A stretch of 64,000 bases of DNA from Rhodobacterales bacterium (GTDB lineage: Bacteria; Pseudomonadota; Alphaproteobacteria; Rhodobacterales; Rhodobacteraceae): assembly GCA_038209775.1 (NCBI GenBank), contig JBBQXK010000008.1, positions 6,649 through 70,648 on the forward strand, read 5' to 3'. Both the position numbers and the translations under genes were made by a program. Below, in pieces: positions 7,757-59,846 of the stretch. The notes under the pieces are model-generated. The model was not told the DNA's origin. It did not search any database and saw only the letters and a program-made list of their open reading frames with translations. Positions within the stretch are counted from its first letter, which is position 1; every line of letters starts with the position of its first letter.

Positions 7757-8547
7757 CCCACCCCACGGCCCGTATCCACCCCACGGCCCTGGTCGATCCG
7801 GCGGCAAGCATCGGTGCAGGGGTTGCCATCGGCCCCTTCGTGGTGATCGGCCCCGAGGTGACGCTGGCACCCGGTGTCACGGTCAAATCCCACGCCGTTG
7901 TCACCGGCTGGACCGACATCGGCGAGGGCAGCACGATCTTTCCCTTTGCGACCGTGGGCGAGGTACCGCAGGATCTGAAATATGCGGGCCAGCGCACCCG
8001 GCTGTCCGTCGGTGCCCGCTGCCGCATCCGCGAAGGGGCGACGCTGAACACCGGCACCGAGGGCGGCGGCGGCGTGACGCGGGTGGGCGATGACTGCCTG
8101 ATCATGACCGGCGCGCATGTGGGCCACGATGCCCAGATCGGCAACCGGGTGATCCTTGTCAATCATGTGGCGATTGCCGGGCATTGCCATTTGGGGGATG
8201 ACGTGATCGTGGGCGGCCTGTCGGGCGTCCACCAATTCGTGCGCATCGGGCGCGGGGCGATCATCGGGGCGGTCACCATGGTGACGAACGACGTCATCCC
8301 CTTTGGTCTGGTGCAGGCCCCGAGGGGAGAGTTGGACGGGTTGAACCTTGTCGGCCTGAAACGCCGGGGGGTCGAGCGGGCCGAGATCACCGCGCTGCGG
8401 GCGGCCTATCAGATGTTGGCGCAGGGGGATGGCACGTTCCTTGACCGCGCGCGCAGGCTGGCCGATGAAACCGACAGCCTTCATGTGCGCGAGTTGACCG
8501 ACTTTATCCTGTCGGCTTCCGACCGCAGCTTTCTCACCCCCAAATGA
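7753..8547 (+). CDS. lpxA: Acyl-ACP--UDP-N-acetylglucosamine O-acyltransferase
   Basis: Left-handed beta-helix hexapeptide repeats, IHPTA N-terminus and a C-terminal helical domain. fabZ-lpxA context. Confidence 0.93.
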
Positions 8548-9362
8548 CCGGCCGCACCGCGCTGATTGCCGGCCGTGGCACCTTGCCCGCCACGCTGTTC
8601 AGCGCCGCCGCCACCCCCCCGTTCGTGGCCGCAATCGAGGGGTTCCCCCCCGATGGCCTGACCCCCGACCTGACCTTTCGTCTTGAACGTCTGATGCCAT
8701 TCCTTGCCGCGCTGCATGATGCGGGGGTCGATCGGGTGGTCTTCGCAGGGGCCGTCACCCGCCCCGCCAGCATCGAGGCCGGCCTGGTCGATCCGGCCAC
8801 CGCAACCGTCCTGCCAGCACTTCTGACAGCAATGCGGGCAGGCGACGACGACGCGCTGCGCGCCGTGATCGCGTTGTTTGAAGGAAATGACCTTGCCGTT
8901 GCAGGCCCGGGTGACCTTGCCCCGGACCTCATGCCGGCCGCGGGCCTGCTGACCGGCACCCTGTCGGCCCGGGATGAGGCTGACGCCGCCCGTGCCGCGC
9001 TGATCGTCGATGCCCTTGGCCGCGTCGATGTGGGGCAGGGGGCTGTGGTGCAGCAGGGCCTTTGCCTTGCGGTCGAGGCACTGCCGGGCACCGATGCGAT
9101 GCTGGCCGATGTGGCGCGCATTGCCCCCGCGCTGCGCCCCGGTTCGGCCATGGGAAGGGGTCTGTTGTACAAGGCCCCGAAACCCGGGCAGGACCGCCGC
9201 ATCGACCTGCCCACCATCGGCCCAGCCACCGTGGCCGCAGTGGCGGGTGCGGGCCTTGGTGGCATTGCGTTTCAGGCAGGGGGCACCATTCTTCTGGACC
9301 GCGCCGCCACCATCGCCGCCTGTGACGCGGCGGGCCTGTTCCTGTGGTCGCGCGCACCATGA
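8544..9362 (+). CDS. lpxI: UDP-2,3-diacylglucosamine pyrophosphatase LpxI (DUF1009 family)
   Basis: Lies between lpxA and lpxB, as in alphaproteobacteria that lack lpxH. N-terminal LIAG.G.LP and C-terminal DLPTIG motifs. Start and stop overlap both neighbours. Confidence 0.8.
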   Translation: MTGRTALIAGRGTLPATLFSAAATPPFVAAIEGFPPDGLTPDLTFRLERLMPFLAALHDAGVDRVVFAGAVTRPASIEAGLVDPATATVLPALLTAMRAGDDDALRAVIALFEGNDLAVAGPGDLAPDLMPAAGLLTGTLSARDEADAARAALIVDALGRVDVGQGAVVQQGLCLAVEALPGTDAMLADVARIAPALRPGSAMGRGLLYKAPKPGQDRRIDLPTIGPATVAAVAGAGLGGIAFQAGGTILLDRAATIAACDAAGLFLWSRAP

Positions 9363-10489
9363 AGCTGTTCCTCGTGGCAGGCGAGCCTTCGGGTGACCGG
9401 CTGGGGGGCGCGCTGATGGCCGGGCTGGCTAGCCTCGCCCCCGGGATCGCCTATGACGGCATCGGCGGGCCCGAGATGGAGCGGCAGGGACTGCACAGCC
9501 GATTTCCCATGCAAGAGTTGTCGGTGATGGGCATTGCCGAGGTGCTGCCGAAATACCGGCACCTGAAACGCCGCATTGCCGAGGTGGCGGCGGCGGTGAT
9601 TGCCATGAACCCCGACGCCCTTGTCACCATCGACAGCCCCGATTTTTGTCTGCGCGTGGCAGCACTGGTCAAGGCGGCGCGGCCCGATCTGCGGACGATC
9701 CACTATGTGGCACCTTCCGTCTGGGCGTGGCGGCCCGGGCGCGCGGCGAAAATGGCGCGGGTGATCGACCACGTTCTGGCGCTGTTGCCGTTCGAGCCGC
9801 CCCTTATAACCGCCGCCGGCATGACCTGCGATTTCGTGGGCCACCCTGTGGTCGCCGAACTGCTGGCCACACCGCGCGAATCAGACGTGTTGCGCGGGTC
9901 CAGCCCGCTGATCCTGGCCCTGCCCGGATCGCGCAAGGGCGAGGTTATCCGTCTGGCTCCCGTCATCGGCACGACCCTTGCCTTGTTGAAGCCCCGCTTT
10001 CCCGGCCTGCGCGTGGCCTTGCCGACGGTGCCGGCGCTTGGCCCCCTTGTCCGCGATCTGGTGCGCGACTGGCCGGTTCGCCCCGAGGTGATCGAACAGG
10101 CGGACCGCAAGCGTGCGGCTTTTGGCGCGGCGGATGTCGCGATTGCAGCGTCGGGCACAGTATCGCTGGAACTGGCTGCGAATGCCTGCCCGATGGTGAT
10201 TGCCTATGACATGCACCCGATCACCCTGTGGTTGATGCGGCGCATGGCGCAGGTGGATACGGTGACGCTGGTGAACCTTGTCAGCGAAACGCGCGTCGTG
10301 CCCGAGTTCATCGGCCGCGACTGCCGAGCCGCCCGCATCGCCCCCGCCCTTGCACGGCTTTTGACCGACCGGCAGGCGCAAGAGGCACAGCGCGAAGCGA
10401 TGGCGGTGACGATGCTACGATTGGGGCAGGGGGGCGAGGCACCGGGGGTGCGGGCCGCGCGGTCGGTGCTGTCAGTCCTCGGCGCGTAG
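9359..10489 (+). CDS. lpxB: Lipid-A-disaccharide synthase
   Basis: MKLFLVAGEPSGD N-terminus, IHYV.PSVWAWR and ASGTVSLE blocks. ATG at 9359; the ORF track starts at 9344. Confidence 0.9.
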   Translation: MKLFLVAGEPSGDRLGGALMAGLASLAPGIAYDGIGGPEMERQGLHSRFPMQELSVMGIAEVLPKYRHLKRRIAEVAAAVIAMNPDALVTIDSPDFCLRVAALVKAARPDLRTIHYVAPSVWAWRPGRAAKMARVIDHVLALLPFEPPLITAAGMTCDFVGHPVVAELLATPRESDVLRGSSPLILALPGSRKGEVIRLAPVIGTTLALLKPRFPGLRVALPTVPALGPLVRDLVRDWPVRPEVIEQADRKRAAFGAADVAIAASGTVSLELAANACPMVIAYDMHPITLWLMRRMAQVDTVTLVNLVSETRVVPEFIGRDCRAARIAPALARLLTDRQAQEAQREAMAVTMLRLGQGGEAPGVRAARSVLSVLGA

Positions 10490-54047: not shown

Positions 54048-54122
54048 TGGGGCGTCGCCAAGCGGTAAGGCATCGGTTTTTGGTACCGACATACCTAGGT
54101 TCGAATCCTAGCGCCCCAGCCA
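54048..54122 (+). tRNA. tRNA-Gln (anticodon TTG)
   Basis: Almost co-linear with E. coli tRNA-Gln: TGGGGCG-TC-GCCAAGCGGTAAGGC-A-TCGGT-TT-TTG-GT-ACCGA-CATAC-CTAGG-TTCGAAT-CCTAG-CGCCCCA-G-CCA. Confidence 0.95.
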
Positions 54123-54128
54123 ACATTC

Positions 54129-54749
54129 CTATTCTTCGGGTGCGTCGTCGTCGCCCACATCTTCGACCACCAGCGCCGGTTTTGCCTTGCGTGCGGCGCG
54201 TTCGGCATCGGTCGGGGTGACCGGAACGCCGGTTGCGCCGACGAACTGCGGGTTGGGTGACGGTGTCGCACCCGAGGGCGGGAATGGCGTCAGCGACACC
54301 GCGCGGAAGATGTCCGGCCCAAGCGTGACGCCCGCGTCACCCACATCAACCTCGACCCGGTAGGGCAAGGGGATCGGGGCGCTGTAGGCGAAGAACACCA
54401 GCCTGGTGCCTTGATAGGCGGGCGCGGTGATCCCTGCGAAATCGGGCATCCCGTGATCGCGCAGGCGGTAGACGCCGGCCTTCCACGCCGCACCCGGGTC
54501 TTCGCCCGCCACCTGTGCGCGATACGACGCCTCATACCCTGCCGGGTCGGTGATCACGCGGTAATCGGTGCCGCTGGCAAAATGCGCCACTGCGCGCGCC
54601 ATGGACGTGGCCGCATCCGGATGCAGCAGGCCCGGCGCCGCCGCCACCAGTGCGGCCAGCGAGCCGACTTCGGTATCGCCTTCGACGATGACCACGCTCT
54701 GGCTTGCGTCGTCCACGCCGAGAACCACCTGAGGAATGCCGTCTGTCAT
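54129..54749 (-). CDS. Hypothetical 206-aa protein with an acidic C-terminal tail, partner of the large upstream protein
   Basis: AAGGA lies 8-9 nt upstream of the ATG, within a 28-nt AT-rich spacer after the upstream stop. Host-like GC3. No signal peptide, TM segment or recognisable family. The stop is 7 nt from the tRNA-Gln 3' end. Confidence 0.6.
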   Translation of the reverse strand: MTDGIPQVVLGVDDASQSVVIVEGDTEVGSLAALVAAAPGLLHPDAATSMARAVAHFASGTDYRVITDPAGYEASYRAQVAGEDPGAAWKAGVYRLRDHGMPDFAGITAPAYQGTRLVFFAYSAPIPLPYRVEVDVGDAGVTLGPDIFRAVSLTPFPPSGATPSPNPQFVGATGVPVTPTDAERAARKAKPALVVEDVGDDDAPEE

Positions 54750-54777
54750 GTGTTTTTCCTTTTTGTATCAGGTGTTG

Positions 54778-57700
54778 TCAGTCGATCTTCGCCCATTCGG
54801 CATCAATCCAGTCGCGCGTGACCTTTATCAAAGACCCGGGCGGCACGATTTTCTGCCACATGACCGGATCGCCTGTGTTGGGATCAGGTGCGATGACAAA
54901 GAACCTGTGATCCGCGCCGCTGCCCCAGTTGGTATCGGCAATCACAAACTCGGGTGCGCCGAGGTCGGTCATCATCCGCTGGGTCAGCTTGTCGGTCAGG
55001 ACCTTTTCATAGGCGGCGGCCTCTTCGACCTTGCGCTTGTCGAAATCGGTGTCCGACACCACTTCACCCTTGTCGGTCTTGCCCTTCTTCCAGTCCGCGG
55101 CATCCTTGTCACCGCGGATCTTGTTGGCGTCCTTGCTTGCCGCCTTGACGGCAGCCGTCAGTTCGGCCGGGGTTACCGGAGCCGTCGGTTTGTGGGCGGC
55201 GATGCCGTCGGTGTAGGCCTTTTTGAGTTCGGGGGTCTTTGCCCCGTCAAGCCAGGGCTGCAGTTCCTTCATGAACATCTCGACCGCCTTGTCGACGGGC
55301 ACCTTGGTGTCGCGCAGATCGCGGCCGGGTTTCAGAAGATTGTCCTCCATCGCCTTGTCGCGCTTGGTCTGGGTGTCGCCCTTGAGTTTGTCCAGCGACG
55401 GGTGGTTCGGCAGGGCGTTGAAGCCGTGCATGCCGACGGTGCGCAGGGTGATCATGTCGTCGGTCTTGCCGGTCATGCCGGTCATAAAGCCCGCGAGAAG
55501 ATCCTTGGTGCGGGTGGGCTCATCCGGTGGCGGTTTACCGGCCCCGGCGGTCATCTGCGTTTGGCTCAGGGTGGCACCGTGCAGGGCCTGCGTCGCTTCG
55601 GTGGTCTGGCCGCCGCTGCCAAGTTCCCAGGGCAGGTATTCATCGTCTTTCGCGGCGCCGAACACCTGGGTTACGGCGTTGATGAAGGCGTCGGATTTCA
55701 CATGATCCTTGACCGTGGCAGCCTCGGGCGCATCCTTGTCGATGCCAAGGGATGCCAATGCGACGGTTGTCATCGCTTCGATGAAGTCTTCCTTCTTGCG
55801 GATTTCCTTTTCGGGGCTGAGCAGCTTGAGGATATAGCGCCCGCGATCGGACGAGCCGTCGTTGCTGTCTTTGACCTCGTCCATCGGGTCGTAGATGAAG
55901 CTGAAGGCCGCGGCCACGTCACCCTTCAGCTTGGTCAGGCGCAGCGCCGCTTTCTTGTCTTCCTCTTCTTGCTTCTTTTTCTGTTCTTCGGGCGGCAAGC
56001 CGCTGTTTCCAGACAGGTTCTTGGTCTTGATCGCGTCGCTCAGCGTGGTCAGGCCCGCGTTGTTGGCTGACCCGAGGCTGGCCTTGGTGGAACTGGTGGC
56101 GCGCTGTGCGGTCGAGGTGGCCAGCGAATATTCCCAACTGCGCATGACCGGATCGTCGCCGGGGGGCGTGTTGGTGACGACGGCCACTTCGGGGCCAAAG
56201 GGCGGCTTGTACTTGCCGGTGCCCGCGATCTGGGCATAGGCCCCCATCGCGCCCAAGGGATCGGTTTCGCGCATCCGCCGCGTCGGTGCCGTGGAAAAGC
56301 ACGATCCGACCGGCCCCTGATCCAGAGGTTTGAGCATCGAGGCCATGACCGAATTGCGGACGTCGTCCTTGTCCACCGCATCGGTATCGCCCTTGCCCGT
56401 GGCGCGGCGGACAAGGCTTTGTGCATTGGGATCAGTCGGTTCCGGCACACCCTTCAAGATATCGCCGGCCTTTGTCGCGTTGGCGGGATCCTTGAGGAAC
56501 CCTACGGTCTTGAGCATATGCGACGACAGCGCCGGGCGCGGGTTCGACAGGACATCGGGGTTGAACAGCGCGTCGCCGATGGCACCCTTGGCCTCGTCGC
56601 TGTCAACATCGACTGACCCGTCGTCCTTGACCATGGCTTTGCCGACCGACATCGTCCGGCGCTGTTCAAGTTCGCCAAAGCTGCCCGATCCCGCCTCACC
56701 CGTCGGATCATCACCGAACTGGCGACCGGTGGCCATGTAGCCATCGATCCGGTCAAAGTATTCCGGGCCGACGCTGCCACCCATCTTTAGCAACTGGTCG
56801 GCGTACTTTGCCGAATATTCCTCGGACATCGTCGAGGTGCCGTCGGTGAACCCTGCATCCTTGAGGTCGATCATCTTGCCAAGGTTGCCCGCCACCGCCT
56901 CGTGGTGATCGCCGGTACGGACGGATTCGAGGGCCGTGGCCGTCAGGTCGGGGTCGCGGCTCGCACCCTTGATGATTTCCAGCGCCCCCCCGCCCGAGAA
57001 TTTCTTGGGTGCGTTTGGCGACAGCGGACCGGTCGTGATCGCATCTTCGATCACCTTCTTGCCCTTGGCGGCCTTTTCATAGGCTTGCGCCTTGGACAGC
57101 GCCGCCTGCGCGTCGGCGATGGCCTTTTGCGCGGCCTTGACGGCCTTGTTGCGCTTGCCGCCCTTGCGCATCGCGTTGGCGTCTTCAAGGGCCTGTTGCG
57201 CATCCGACAGCAAGGTCTTGGCGGCGCCGGTATCTTCGGATGCCTTGGCCAGCACCTCGGGGGTGATTTCGATGTCACCGCCCAGGGTTTCGTCAAAATC
57301 CTGAAGTGCCGCCTGCGCGGCAAGTGCGGCCTCGGGATAGTCGCCCGCGATGGCCAGAAGTTTGGCGTTGTCCTTCACGAACTCGGCCGCCTTGCCGAGA
57401 CCGTCCTTGACCGCCTGGCTGATCTTGTCGACCAGCGACATCACGTCACCCACGATGCCGCCACCGCCTTCAACGGTGTCTTCAGTCTTTTTGCCGCCAA
57501 AGACGCCCTTCACCGTTTCCTTGATCTTCTTGAAGATGTTGCCATCACCCGCGCCGTCACCTTCGGGGCCTGCCAGTCCGTCGCCCTGCGGCGGGCCACC
57601 GGCGTTGTCGTTGCCCTGCGGCGGCGGCGGTGCCGTTGGCGGCTGCACGCCGGTGTCGCCCGGCTGGGCCTTGGCGAGTTCCGAGGTCGCCATGTTGCGC

Positions 57701-58554
57701 AACAGCGACAGGATCTGTCCCGATTTCTTGAGGTCACGCTCAATCTCGGCCTTGAACATGCCGATAAGCGAGGTCACCTTGCCGGTCACAGCCTTGTCCG
57801 CACCTTGAAGCAACGTGCGAAGATCGCCGCCCATCACACTGAATTCCTGCACAAGCTTTTCGCGCAGACCAGCCTCGTTCTCACCGCTGTTGTTGCCGCC
57901 GCCGGCCAATTGCCGCAGACCGGCCTCAACCGCCTCGATCAGCTTTTCAGCGCGGTCAAGGCCCGCATTTGCCATCTCGGTGGCGGCGGTCTGGACGGCC
58001 TTTGACAGCTTGTCGACACCCGGCAGGGCGCGGGCAGCGGCGTCGCGCAACTGGGGCACGATTGCCTTGATGCGGTTCGCCAGCGCCGCCTTGCGCGCGG
58101 CATCGGGATCGTCCTGCGTCTGGGCCGCCTCGGCCACGGTTTCGGCAACCGCGACCTCATTCCCCTCGGTCACTTCGACGTTGCCGTCGTCATCGCTGTC
58201 TTCGATGCGCTGGCCGTTCGGCAGGATCACCACCACCTTCAGCGGCAGTTTCATCGACATGAAGTGCTTTTTGGCCAGTTTCGGCAGGTTGGCAGGGAAT
58301 TCGTCTGTCGTGACCGTCATCTCCAGCGTCTTGCCAGAGGCGGTCATCGTGCCCGTCATCGAAATGGCGGGAAGGCCGCCTGCATCCTTGGCGGCGCGGA
58401 ACATGACATCGCAGCTTTTCAGCGGATGCGCCTTGAGAACCACGCCCTCTTTTGCCTTGAGAAGGGCAAAGTTATGGGGCTTTTTCTTGCAGTCCCTGAC
58501 GATCTCTTCCAGTTCGGCAACCGAATTGCCGATCGTGGCGTCATCCTTGGCCAT
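54778..58554 (-). CDS. Large (about 1,258 aa) uncharacterised multidomain protein with a Pro/Gly-rich linker and a putative papain-like Cys motif
   Basis: Single uninterrupted ORF (the track gives 54778..58632). GGAGG lies 6 nt upstream of ATG 58554 (MAKDDATIG...). Lys/Asp/Ala-rich. No signal peptide, TM segment, P-loop, RTX, Rhs or YD motifs seen. LDQGPVGSCFSTAP motif at 56284..56325. Confidence 0.8.
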   Translation of the reverse strand: MAKDDATIGNSVAELEEIVRDCKKKPHNFALLKAKEGVVLKAHPLKSCDVMFRAAKDAGGLPAISMTGTMTASGKTLEMTVTTDEFPANLPKLAKKHFMSMKLPLKVVVILPNGQRIEDSDDDGNVEVTEGNEVAVAETVAEAAQTQDDPDAARKAALANRIKAIVPQLRDAAARALPGVDKLSKAVQTAATEMANAGLDRAEKLIEAVEAGLRQLAGGGNNSGENEAGLREKLVQEFSVMGGDLRTLLQGADKAVTGKVTSLIGMFKAEIERDLKKSGQILSLLRNMATSELAKAQPGDTGVQPPTAPPPPQGNDNAGGPPQGDGLAGPEGDGAGDGNIFKKIKETVKGVFGGKKTEDTVEGGGGIVGDVMSLVDKISQAVKDGLGKAAEFVKDNAKLLAIAGDYPEAALAAQAALQDFDETLGGDIEITPEVLAKASEDTGAAKTLLSDAQQALEDANAMRKGGKRNKAVKAAQKAIADAQAALSKAQAYEKAAKGKKVIEDAITTGPLSPNAPKKFSGGGALEIIKGASRDPDLTATALESVRTGDHHEAVAGNLGKMIDLKDAGFTDGTSTMSEEYSAKYADQLLKMGGSVGPEYFDRIDGYMATGRQFGDDPTGEAGSGSFGELEQRRTMSVGKAMVKDDGSVDVDSDEAKGAIGDALFNPDVLSNPRPALSSHMLKTVGFLKDPANATKAGDILKGVPEPTDPNAQSLVRRATGKGDTDAVDKDDVRNSVMASMLKPLDQGPVGSCFSTAPTRRMRETDPLGAMGAYAQIAGTGKYKPPFGPEVAVVTNTPPGDDPVMRSWEYSLATSTAQRATSSTKASLGSANNAGLTTLSDAIKTKNLSGNSGLPPEEQKKKQEEEDKKAALRLTKLKGDVAAAFSFIYDPMDEVKDSNDGSSDRGRYILKLLSPEKEIRKKEDFIEAMTTVALASLGIDKDAPEAATVKDHVKSDAFINAVTQVFGAAKDDEYLPWELGSGGQTTEATQALHGATLSQTQMTAGAGKPPPDEPTRTKDLLAGFMTGMTGKTDDMITLRTVGMHGFNALPNHPSLDKLKGDTQTKRDKAMEDNLLKPGRDLRDTKVPVDKAVEMFMKELQPWLDGAKTPELKKAYTDGIAAHKPTAPVTPAELTAAVKAASKDANKIRGDKDAADWKKGKTDKGEVVSDTDFDKRKVEEAAAYEKVLTDKLTQRMMTDLGAPEFVIADTNWGSGADHRFFVIAPDPNTGDPVMWQKIVPPGSLIKVTRDWIDAEWAKID

Positions 58555-58739
58555 CAATTCCCTCCAAAACGGCAGGTTCCGGGGCCGGTCACGCACAATT
58601 TCCGGTACGGAACAGATCACAACAATCGTCATGTCCTAGCATGCTGCCGGTCGGCCTGTAAACCGGCTTGATCGGGTTTCCGGTCACCGGGCAAGCCCGG
58701 GGGCGCGCGGAAATTCTGTGTGTCAACTGTATGACAGGA

Positions 58740-59846
58740 CTAGGATAATTCATCTTGAAGAAGGGTCTGCACCGATTGGGGCGGTACATTCTCTGCGACG
58801 AAGGCCTGCCCGATCCCGCGTGCCAGCACAAAGCGCAGGCGTCCGTCGATCACCTTCTTGTCCTGCCCCATCAGTGCCAGCAGCGCCGCCGCATCGGGCA
58901 GGTCGCCCGCAATGTCGCGCAGGCCCGATTTCATGCCCATCGCCACCAGATGCGCGCGCACGCGGCCAGGCTCTTCCTGCGCGTACAGGCCCAGCCGTTG
59001 GCTCAGATCAAAGGCCAGACCACAGCCGATGGCCACCCCTTCGCCATGCAGCAGCCGGTCGGAGTATCCGGTGGCCTTTTCCAGCGCGTGACAGAAGGTG
59101 TGCCCAAGGTTCAAAAGCGCGCGCTCGCCTTCTTCCGTCTCATCCCGTTCGACGATGCCCGCCTTCATCTGAACCGAGCGCAGGACGGCATGCTGGCGCA
59201 GGTCGCGGTTGCCAAGGGCTATGGCCGGGCCGTTGACCTCAAGCCAGTCGAAAAAGCCTGCGTCCCCGAGAAGGCCATACTTCACCACTTCGCCGTACCC
59301 CGCCAGAAGGTCGCGGCGCGGCAGCGTATCCAGAAGGGCGATGTCGGCCAAGACCAGCGAAGGCTGGTGAAACGCGCCGACCAGGTTCTTGCCCTGCCCC
59401 GTGTTGATGCCGGTCTTGCCGCCGACCGAACTGTCAACCTGTGCCAGAAGCGTTGTGGGGATCTGCACGAAGCGCACACCGCGGCGCAGGATGGCGGCGG
59501 CGAACCCCACCAGATCGCCGATAACGCCGCCGCCAAAGGCAACGACGACATCGCGACGCTCGACCTTCGCCTCCAAGAGCCATTCGACACAGCGGGCAAG
59601 CTGAGCCCAGCCCTTGGTCGCCTCGCCTGCAGGCAAGACCAGCGCCTGCACCGCGATGCCCTGGGCGGCAAAGGCACTGCGCAGCCGGTCCAGATGCAGC
59701 GCTGCGACGGTCTCGTCGGTCACCACCGCCACCCGCGGCCGCGTCAGAAGGGGGGCTATTTCCGCACCCGCGATATCGGTCAGACCGGGGCCGATCCGCA
59801 CGTCATAAGACCGGGCACCCAGTGCCACGCGAACGACATCGATCAT
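58740..59846 (-). CDS. aroB: 3-dehydroquinate synthase
   Basis: GGGVIGDL.GFAA, GGKTGIN and HT..HA.E metal-binding blocks. Overlaps aroK by 4 nt. Confidence 0.95.
   Translation of the reverse strand: MIDVVRVALGARSYDVRIGPGLTDIAGAEIAPLLTRPRVAVVTDETVAALHLDRLRSAFAAQGIAVQALVLPAGEATKGWAQLARCVEWLLEAKVERRDVVVAFGGGVIGDLVGFAAAILRRGVRFVQIPTTLLAQVDSSVGGKTGINTGQGKNLVGAFHQPSLVLADIALLDTLPRRDLLAGYGEVVKYGLLGDAGFFDWLEVNGPAIALGNRDLRQHAVLRSVQMKAGIVERDETEEGERALLNLGHTFCHALEKATGYSDRLLHGEGVAIGCGLAFDLSQRLGLYAQEEPGRVRAHLVAMGMKSGLRDIAGDLPDAAALLALMGQDKKVIDGRLRFVLARGIGQAFVAENVPPQSVQTLLQDELS

Follow-up and report, generated by a model that had tools for sequence, protein, structure and literature searches.

An orphan locus with a candidate effector gene and a candidate immunity gene

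The locus described here raises the question of whether a large bacterial protein that carries a block resembling the active-site cysteine block of papain is an enzyme and, if so, in what process such an enzyme would act. It lies in a stretch of 64,000 nucleotides (nt), hereafter called the window, from a Rhodobacterales bacterium (NCBI GenBank assembly GCA_038209775.1, contig JBBQXK010000008.1, positions 6,649 to 70,648 of the forward strand). The large gene (P0002; 54778..58554 on the minus strand, with its stop codon at 54778..54780) encodes an effector candidate of 1258 amino acids (aa) and is followed, 28 nt downstream, by the gene of a 206-aa partner (54129..54749, minus strand), the candidate for immunity. 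With slightly more confidence than doubt, we read the two genes as an orphan type VI secretion system (T6SS) cargo effector-immunity pair with a new papain-like toxin domain. The enzyme candidate, its N-terminal domain and the partner all belong to undescribed families.

The open reading frame (ORF) of the large gene extends over 54778..58632 on the minus strand and gives 1284 aa. The true start is likely the ATG at 58554 (Met27 of the ORF), which we prefer because a GGAGG box lies 7 nt upstream of it. The public version of the protein also begins at Met27, and its 1258-aa numbering, used below, is the same as that of an initial annotation made from the DNA sequence. The N-terminal domain (residues 1-123; 58186..58554, on the minus strand like all other parts of the gene) is Lys-rich, about 115-120 aa in length and without a Pfam match. 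It is followed by a variable linker (residues 124-474; 57133..58185), which is acidic, coiled-coil, Pro/Gly-rich and poorly conserved, and gives coiled-coil matches only. The globular C-terminal region starts with a conserved all-helical part (residues 475-729; 56368..57132), predicted with a local confidence score (pLDDT) above 90 to form one body with the catalytic part, and ends with the catalytic-domain candidate (residues 730-1258; 54781..56367), which would consist of a papain-like Cys/His/Asn core and three helical inserts. Long ORFs of up to 444 aa are also present on the plus strand inside the gene, for example at 54736..56070 and 56902-58005. We rejected them as genes and regard them as antisense shadows, as their clustering across loci comes only from the overlying conserved minus-strand gene.

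The putative catalytic residues are invariant among homologues

Homologues of the large protein were collected by a word-indexed search, which gave 88 sequences, and by an exhaustive search, which gave 232 representatives at 50% identity. Nearly all of them are 900-1600 aa in length and annotated as 'hypothetical'. Conservation was determined in an alignment of 181 full C-terminal domains, reaching down to about 27% identity and comprising 529 columns. The results showed that 11 of the 529 columns are 100% invariant, namely Q746, G750, S751, C752, T755, D899, S902, H1043, N1209, W1210 and G1228. D1207 is conserved in 98% of the domains, and E808, Y888 and W976 are further conserved residues.

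The initial annotation had compared the string LDQGPVGSCFSTAP with the nucleophile block of papain-family peptidases, and had named TVGMHGFNALP and ADTNWGSGADHRFFVIAPD as possible sources of the remaining triad residues. A codon check found these strings and all the named codons where they had been placed: CAG at 56317..56319 encodes Gln746, TGC at 56299..56301 Cys752, CAC at 55426..55428 His1043, AAC at 54928..54930 Asn1209 and CAC at 54907..54909 His1216. The distances of 291 residues from Cys to His and 457 residues from Cys to Asn are likewise correct. Four of these five residues, which had been picked from a single sequence, belong to the invariant set and thus fall in the 2% of columns that are invariant. 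Gln, Cys, His and Asn are present in all 181 domains and are also kept in a 1778-aa outlier (P0089; 23-31% identity, with an extra insert of 250 aa), which retains QG.VGSCF, DGSS, the His block and ADTNWG. The fifth residue, the alternative candidate His1216, is His in only 128 of the 181 domains and was given up.

The nucleophile block Q746-G-P-V-G750-S751-C752 is encoded at 56299..56319, and its Gln, Gly750, Ser and Cys are the invariant positions. As the pattern QG..GSC[FWY] occurs a single time in the 5.0 million six-frame residues of the bacterium's own genome, and as these positions are invariant among homologues, we consider it to be more than a chance match. Cys752 is the sole cysteine of the conserved C-terminal 784 residues. 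The loop D899-G-S-S902 (55849..55860), in which D899 and S902 are invariant, lies between two core strands and is probably part of the cleft. His1043 (55426..55428) is the proposed general base. The block D1207-T-N1209-W1210 is encoded at 54925..54936, and we propose that Asn1209 is the third member of the triad, with Trp1210 as a shielding residue. A charged helical insert of about 147 aa (54961..55401) separates the His strand from the Asn strand.

That the spacings are unlike those of C1 peptidases, and that the protein would be an elaborated or novel variant, had also been suggested at the outset, and this holds for the family as a whole. Cys-to-His distances range from 247 to 327 residues and His-to-Asn distances from 114 to 316 (291 and 166, respectively, in the window protein), and an insert of at least 114 aa lies between His and Asn in every member.

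Predicted structure and relation to papain-like peptidases

The structure of residues 475-1258 was predicted by AlphaFold2 with 86 sequences. The model has a mean pLDDT of 96 and a predicted template modelling score of 0.92, and the region forms a single compact body. In this model, Cys752 (model residue 278) opens the helix 278-290; His1043 (model residue 569) opens a beta-strand (569-573) that follows a hairpin partner; and Asn1209-Trp-Gly (model residues 735-737) closes the first strand (729-737) of a C-terminal five-strand block. Three helical inserts interrupt the core at model residues 328-409, 447-552 and 578-724, and are a family-wide feature. The order of the conserved residues is thus that of clan CA, with Cys on a helix, His on a strand and Asn on a later core strand. 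The predicted secondary-structure setting and the residue order fit a papain-like layout split by the three inserts. The segment 'EFVIADTNWG...RFFVIAP' locally resembles the papain pattern, in which a strand is followed by N-S-W-G and then by another strand.

Known families gave no match to the protein in searches of Pfam, NCBIfam, PADLOC and PDB sequences. When 37 diverse members were scanned against Pfam at E values up to 10, neither a recurrent family nor a peptidase family came up, and a profile search of PDB returned coiled-coil proteins only, aligned in the variable linker. The hidden Markov model (HMM) of Peptidase_C1 (PF00112) gave no match above its gathering score, and the calpain family (Peptidase_C2, PF00648) gave no Pfam match. 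With respect to the features of Peptidase_C1, a Gln-x5-Cys block with the Cys at a helix N-terminus is present (QGPVGSCF), and the His and Asn, which should be 16-25 residues apart with an N-S-W-G motif, are 166 residues apart with N-W-G.

We then compared profiles by hhalign, using as references seven bacterial Peptidase_C1 domains and six calpain-like domains taken from genomes. The core profile with the inserts deleted scored 24.7 against C1 (E 0.008), and the QG..GSC blocks were aligned with each other. The permutation null for this comparison was 13.7 +/- 2.2, and none of 200 permutations reached the real score. The similarity to C1 sits in the Cys block (z 5.3). As a yardstick, C1 scored 55.9 against C2 (E 3e-7), so the present family is much further from C1 and C2 than these are from each other, and its relation to them is one of resemblance and not of membership. 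We also tried mean-field direct-coupling analysis to see whether the His strand pairs with the Asn strand; with an effective number of sequences of about 180, artefacts at gap edges dominated its output, which was discarded.

The partner gene accompanies the large gene, and the pair has been inserted

Gene calls in six genomes showed that a homologous gene of 148-188 aa always follows the large gene and that the flanks are unrelated housekeeping genes. Among 75 loci from named genomes, 73 have a partner homologue, of 150-200 aa, as the next gene downstream and on the same strand; of the two exceptions, one is a truncated locus and the other has no detectable partner homologue. The latter (L062) is one of three paralogues in the metagenome-assembled genome (MAG) Paracoccaceae CBDICG010000002.1. 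No other complete locus is of this kind, and it may carry a non-homologous replacement of the partner. Apart from a protein of about 540 aa described below, no other gene recurs at the 75 loci. The pairwise identities of the toxin domain and of the partner co-vary (r 0.74), and the partner alignment contains no conserved 7-mer.

The partner lacks a signal peptide and matched no family in Pfam, NCBIfam or PADLOC; the missing signal peptide fits a cytoplasmic target. It is confidently predicted to fold into an alpha/beta domain (pLDDT 90.7), which would be a novel fold. No solved relative was found; the best match (E 0.72) was the T6SS immunity protein Tni2, with a template modelling score of 0.16, which is not significant.

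The pair is bounded on the right by a tRNA-Gln(UUG) gene (54048..54122, plus strand), which abuts the stop codon of the partner, and on the left by aroB, encoding 3-dehydroquinate synthase (58740..59846, minus strand), which lies about 100 nt beyond the start of the large gene. The module is present in three of the four genomes available for the genus, each time at this aroB/tRNA-Gln site. The fourth congener (G003) has the empty site, in which the aroB stop codon is followed after about 8 nt by tRNA-Gln. The pair is thus an insertion at this site, and neither direct repeats nor att-like duplications were found flanking it.

The gene was present in none of 36 more distant relatives, and several other genomes carry two to three paralogues. 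The carriers are mostly Rhodobacterales, and also include Rhodopila and other Acetobacteraceae, Pelomonas, Chthoniobacter flavus and a Chthoniobacterales MAG. Outside the Alphaproteobacteria, the pair was seen in Chthoniobacter flavus Ellin428 (L042), the Chthoniobacterales MAG (L088) and Pelomonas sp. KK5 (L033). The 42% identity found in Verrucomicrobia points to cross-phylum transfer.

Link of the family to type VI secretion

To see how the gene is distributed relative to T6SS, we compared the genomes with and without it. TssC was present in 49 of the 50 genomes carrying the gene and in 11 of the 38 relatives that lack the gene (p 8e-13). The one carrier in which TssC is missing is a MAG of 2.5 Mb. 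The N-terminal domain gave a similar picture, being found in 6 of 14 T6SS-positive and 0 of 27 T6SS-negative relatives (n=41, p 7e-4). It occurs in 2-12 copies per genome, with 6-12 in the four genomes of the genus, where it is attached to at least seven unrelated C-terminal families. A shared N-terminal domain, unrelated C-termini and confinement to T6SS-positive genomes are the features expected of a T6SS marker domain. Within the present family the domain is conserved in most members, and a few have a different N-terminus, which implies that one and the same catalytic domain can be joined to alternative front-end modules. In P0021, P0039 (Rhodopila) and P0065 the Lys-rich domain is replaced by a mutually similar N-terminus (MPLDTLTDQQRAFV...KNK.T..AY..YV). 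Hcp-like and DUF4280 genes are located about 6 kb away at the Rhodopila locus.

The HMM of the N-terminal domain detected five more ORFs, of 150-1966 aa, in the bacterium's own genome. They lie outside the window, at C21:11275-12688, C29:9051-10640, C44:21630-22124 and C2:113085-118982 (contig and positions), and have no Pfam match. Two of them, at C21:11275-12688, are divergent from a tssA-tssB-tssC-hcp cluster on the same contig. The 1966-aa ORF encodes an acidic coiled-coil, apolipoprotein-like giant. This genome has one VgrG and one Hcp. In other genomes, too, genes with the N-terminal domain are found near the T6SS, as 9 of 18 sampled had one within 10 kb of tssC. At the Chthoniobacterales locus (L088), the region a few kb upstream of the pair contains a TssA-like gene together with a small gene that has the N-terminal domain.

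The protein of about 540 aa mentioned above has the same N-terminal domain and a different helical C-terminus, and it represents one of the unrelated C-terminal families counted in the genus. It adjoins the module, in convergent or tandem orientation, in about eight genomes (L039, L056, L059, L065, L071, L074, L086 and L087, at about 8200-9900 in each locus) and adjoins tssC in L094, L096, L099 and L100; it may be another effector, or else an adaptor that is secreted. In addition to tssC itself, a weaker VipB/TssC-like match (E 1e-36 to 1e-49) was seen at C10:4557-5399 and in most T6SS-positive relatives, within unusually large open frames of 570-2050 aa that lie 12-15 kb from the true tssC, beside vgrG.

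A Pfam search with the N-terminal domain gave no match, and a word-indexed search with this domain alone returned close relatives only. Its profile matched PDB entries weakly, with the C-terminal half aligned to SUMO-2/3 (E of about 0.1 for the single domain and 1e-5 for tandem SUMO) and to ribosomal protein eL22. This sequence similarity hints that the C-terminal half may be beta-grasp-like.

Proposed mechanism and alternative explanations

The reading that we favour can be put together as follows. The protein would consist of an N-terminal domain of about 120 aa serving as a T6SS-loading or marker module, the variable acidic coiled-coil linker, and a conserved globular region of about 780 aa containing a cysteine hydrolase. 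In the hydrolase, Cys752 at the N-terminus of its helix would be the nucleophile, with Gln746, six residues before it, forming the oxyanion hole. His1043 at the start of its strand would act as the base, oriented by Asn1209, possibly with the aid of Asp1207, and Trp1210 would shield the His-Asn pair. The three family-wide helical inserts would elaborate this core. The toxin would be delivered into the cytoplasm of a rival bacterium, where it would cleave or otherwise modify a protein target. Its chemistry is most likely peptide-bond hydrolysis, with deamidation or transamidation as possible alternatives. The 206-aa partner, probably co-transcribed and cytoplasmic, would bind the toxin and so protect the producer.

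Several results weigh against this reading. When the 784-aa model was searched by Foldseek against PDB and BFVD, the best E values were 0.26 and 0.36 and the matches were helical junk. No solved or viral predicted structure is similar, and the papain-like topology is deduced from secondary structure and motifs, not from a superposition. Core inserts of 80-150 aa cannot be bridged by such a local search, and since the minimum His-to-Asn distance is 114 residues, no member of the family offers a cleaner query. The joined His and Asn blocks aligned His to His with C1 at z 2.6, which is not significant, and neither C1 nor C2 gave a significant hhalign result with these blocks. The core scored 18.2 against calpain (null 13.6 +/- 2.3, z 2), also not significant. 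Of the papain-like signature first proposed, the Cys block has thus stood up to controls and the His and Asn blocks have not; the papain-like hypothesis as a whole agrees with conservation and predicted secondary structure, and finds no Foldseek match to a papain-like fold. On the side of secretion, a T6SS core gene is within 6 kb in 1 of the 75 module loci only, and the large protein shows no fusion to PAAR, VgrG or Rhs. When 13 other proteins with the N-terminal domain were scanned against Pfam, no known toxin domain came up, so this domain is read as an effector marker by analogy. The predicted fold of the partner resembles no known immunity protein.

Some of these observations would suit an enzyme with the same Cys-His-Asn site that is not T6SS cargo, but either belongs to an intracellular conflict module (toxin-antitoxin or anti-phage) or leaves the cell by another export route, the co-occurrence with T6SS then reflecting shared ecology or lineage. 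The two genes make up a self-contained islet next to a tRNA gene, with T6SS genes far away in 74 of the 75 loci, and, besides the missing fusion to PAAR, VgrG or Rhs, both proteins lack an export signal. We nevertheless regard this as unlikely, given that PADLOC gave no hit, that the T6SS association (49/50 versus 11/38) holds across phyla, and that the protein's own N-terminal domain turns up again next to tssABC and is never present in T6SS-negative genomes. The position beside tssA, tssB and tssC could in turn mean that the N-domain proteins are accessory, structural or regulatory components of a T6SS subtype and not toxins; the hydrolase would then serve to process either T6SS components or itself inside the producing cell, with the partner as a substrate, regulator or chaperone. 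The other N-domain proteins are indeed long, helical and apolipoprotein-like, without recognisable toxin domains, and the protein of about 540 aa is conserved beside T6SS clusters and, in several genomes, beside the module. Such a role is quite unlikely in our view, as the module is patchy and strain-variable within one genus, has been inserted, and has paralogues each with its own diverged partner, features that characterise effector-immunity pairs but not core components. Moreover, the congener with the empty site has a T6SS and no module.

The remaining explanations concern the active site. A real Cys/His/Asn site on a papain-like or transglutaminase-like scaffold could serve a non-proteolytic chemistry, such as glutamine deamidation, transglutamination, or acyl or ADP-ribosyl-cysteine-type transfer onto protein or lipid. 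Many papain-fold enzymes injected by bacteria are deamidases or transglutaminases, the Cif, CNF1, PMT-C3 and TecA classes among them; the large extra domains together with D899, S902, E808, Y888 and W976 suggest an unusual substrate site; and no Pfam peptidase family was matched. However, Gln-x5-Cys, an aromatic residue after the Cys and Asn-Trp after the His strand make up the C1/C2 peptidase signature, and the C1 profile was the only one to score above controls, and we hold this alternative to be rather unlikely. Very improbable, to our mind, is a purely structural or ligand-binding role of the conserved residues, with no catalytic triad and a coincidental resemblance to papain. It would be in line with the lack of a fold match to any papain-like structure, with the insignificant similarity of the His and Asn blocks to C1 and with spacings far beyond those of any known clan CA family. 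Against it, the sole Cys as well as His, Asn, Gln and Trp are invariant in the 181 domains and have the canonical secondary-structure position and order, which is hard to explain by structure alone.

Significance

Returning to the effector-immunity reading, a broader claim can be attached to it, which we put forward tentatively and as somewhat less than probable: the locus would represent a new clan-CA-like hydrolase family of about 780 aa with three obligatory helical inserts and without a structural relative, and a new T6SS marker domain flagging an uncharacterised effector repertoire. This repertoire would comprise 2-12 proteins per genome, of 165-2190 aa, all of them bearing novel warheads and paired with novel immunity proteins. 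It would be found in Rhodobacterales and, sporadically, in Acetobacteraceae, Betaproteobacteria and Verrucomicrobia.

The marine and freshwater Rhodobacterales include the roseobacter and Paracoccaceae groups, which abound in the microbiomes of algae and animals, and we know of essentially no T6SS effectors described from these Rhodobacterales. If the reading is true, the N-terminal domain is a simple search handle for an arsenal of uncharacterised effectors. The C-terminal domain would add to the papain-like hydrolases a new, very large and confidently foldable family, which would come with a novel immunity fold and a cytoplasmic target. Cysteine-protease T6SS toxins were only recently shown to hit specific essential proteins, and a second, unrelated family would test the generality of this strategy. 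Should the triad geometry fail, the family would still be a conserved protein of wide distribution that has 11 invariant residues but no function assigned to it.

Comparison with known systems

A look at the literature on this family and on Rhodobacterales T6SS effectors yielded nothing specific, and the comparison is therefore made with systems from elsewhere. MIX, FIX, RIX and PIX are polymorphic classes of T6SS cargo effectors (PMC6688995, PMC10435454, bioRxiv 10.1101/2023.07.16.549128). Like these, the proteins considered here share a common N-terminal domain joined to unrelated C-termini, are confined to T6SS-positive genomes, and in some cases lie next to the T6SS cluster, while orphan loci, here of candidate effector-immunity pairs, occur at other places in the genome. 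Unlike these, their N-terminal domain, compared here by description, is about 115 aa long, Lys-rich, mainly from Rhodobacterales and without a Pfam match, and the C-terminal domains attached to it are all uncharacterised.

With the papain family C1 the catalytic candidate shares the block Q-G-x-x-G-S-C-[W/F], with the oxyanion Gln six residues before the Cys, as well as the setting of the Cys at a helix N-terminus, of the His at a strand start, and of Asn followed by Trp-Gly on the next core strand. In textbook papain numbering, Cys and His are about 134 residues apart and His and Asn about 16, in contrast to 291 and 166 here. The motif is N-W-G here and N-S-W-G in papain, and the window protein has neither a pro-region nor a signal peptide, nor an HMM match to C1. 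The calpain family C2 is alike in its motifs Q-G-x-x-G-[SD]-C-[YWF] and N-P-W-G and in occurring as a module in very large bacterial proteins, whereas the hhalign score (z 2), the lack of an HMM match and the much longer spacings set the present family apart.

The closest characterised parallels are Cpe1-Cpi1, EvpQ and TsaP, which are papain-like C39-type cysteine protease toxins of T6SS or contact-dependent inhibition with immunity genes downstream; Cpe1 cleaves GyrB and ParE (PMC12136450). The present pair would likewise be of the interbacterial-toxin type, with a predicted Cys/His/Asn-or-Asp triad in papain order. It has its candidate immunity gene directly downstream, the two genes diverge together, and they have spread horizontally across phyla. 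A cytoplasmic target is implied in both cases by a cytoplasmic immunity protein, here a candidate. The Cpe1-type domains, however, are small (about 150 aa) and C39-like, whereas the domain described here measures 530-780 aa, is 3-5 times larger, has three large helical inserts, and gives no match to Peptidase_C39 or any other Pfam family. Furthermore, Cpe1-type domains are usually carried on or beside PAAR, VgrG, Rhs or CdiA, and the present one follows an undescribed N-terminal domain at an orphan locus. By its size, type and carrier, the window protein thus represents a family different from the Cpe1 class.

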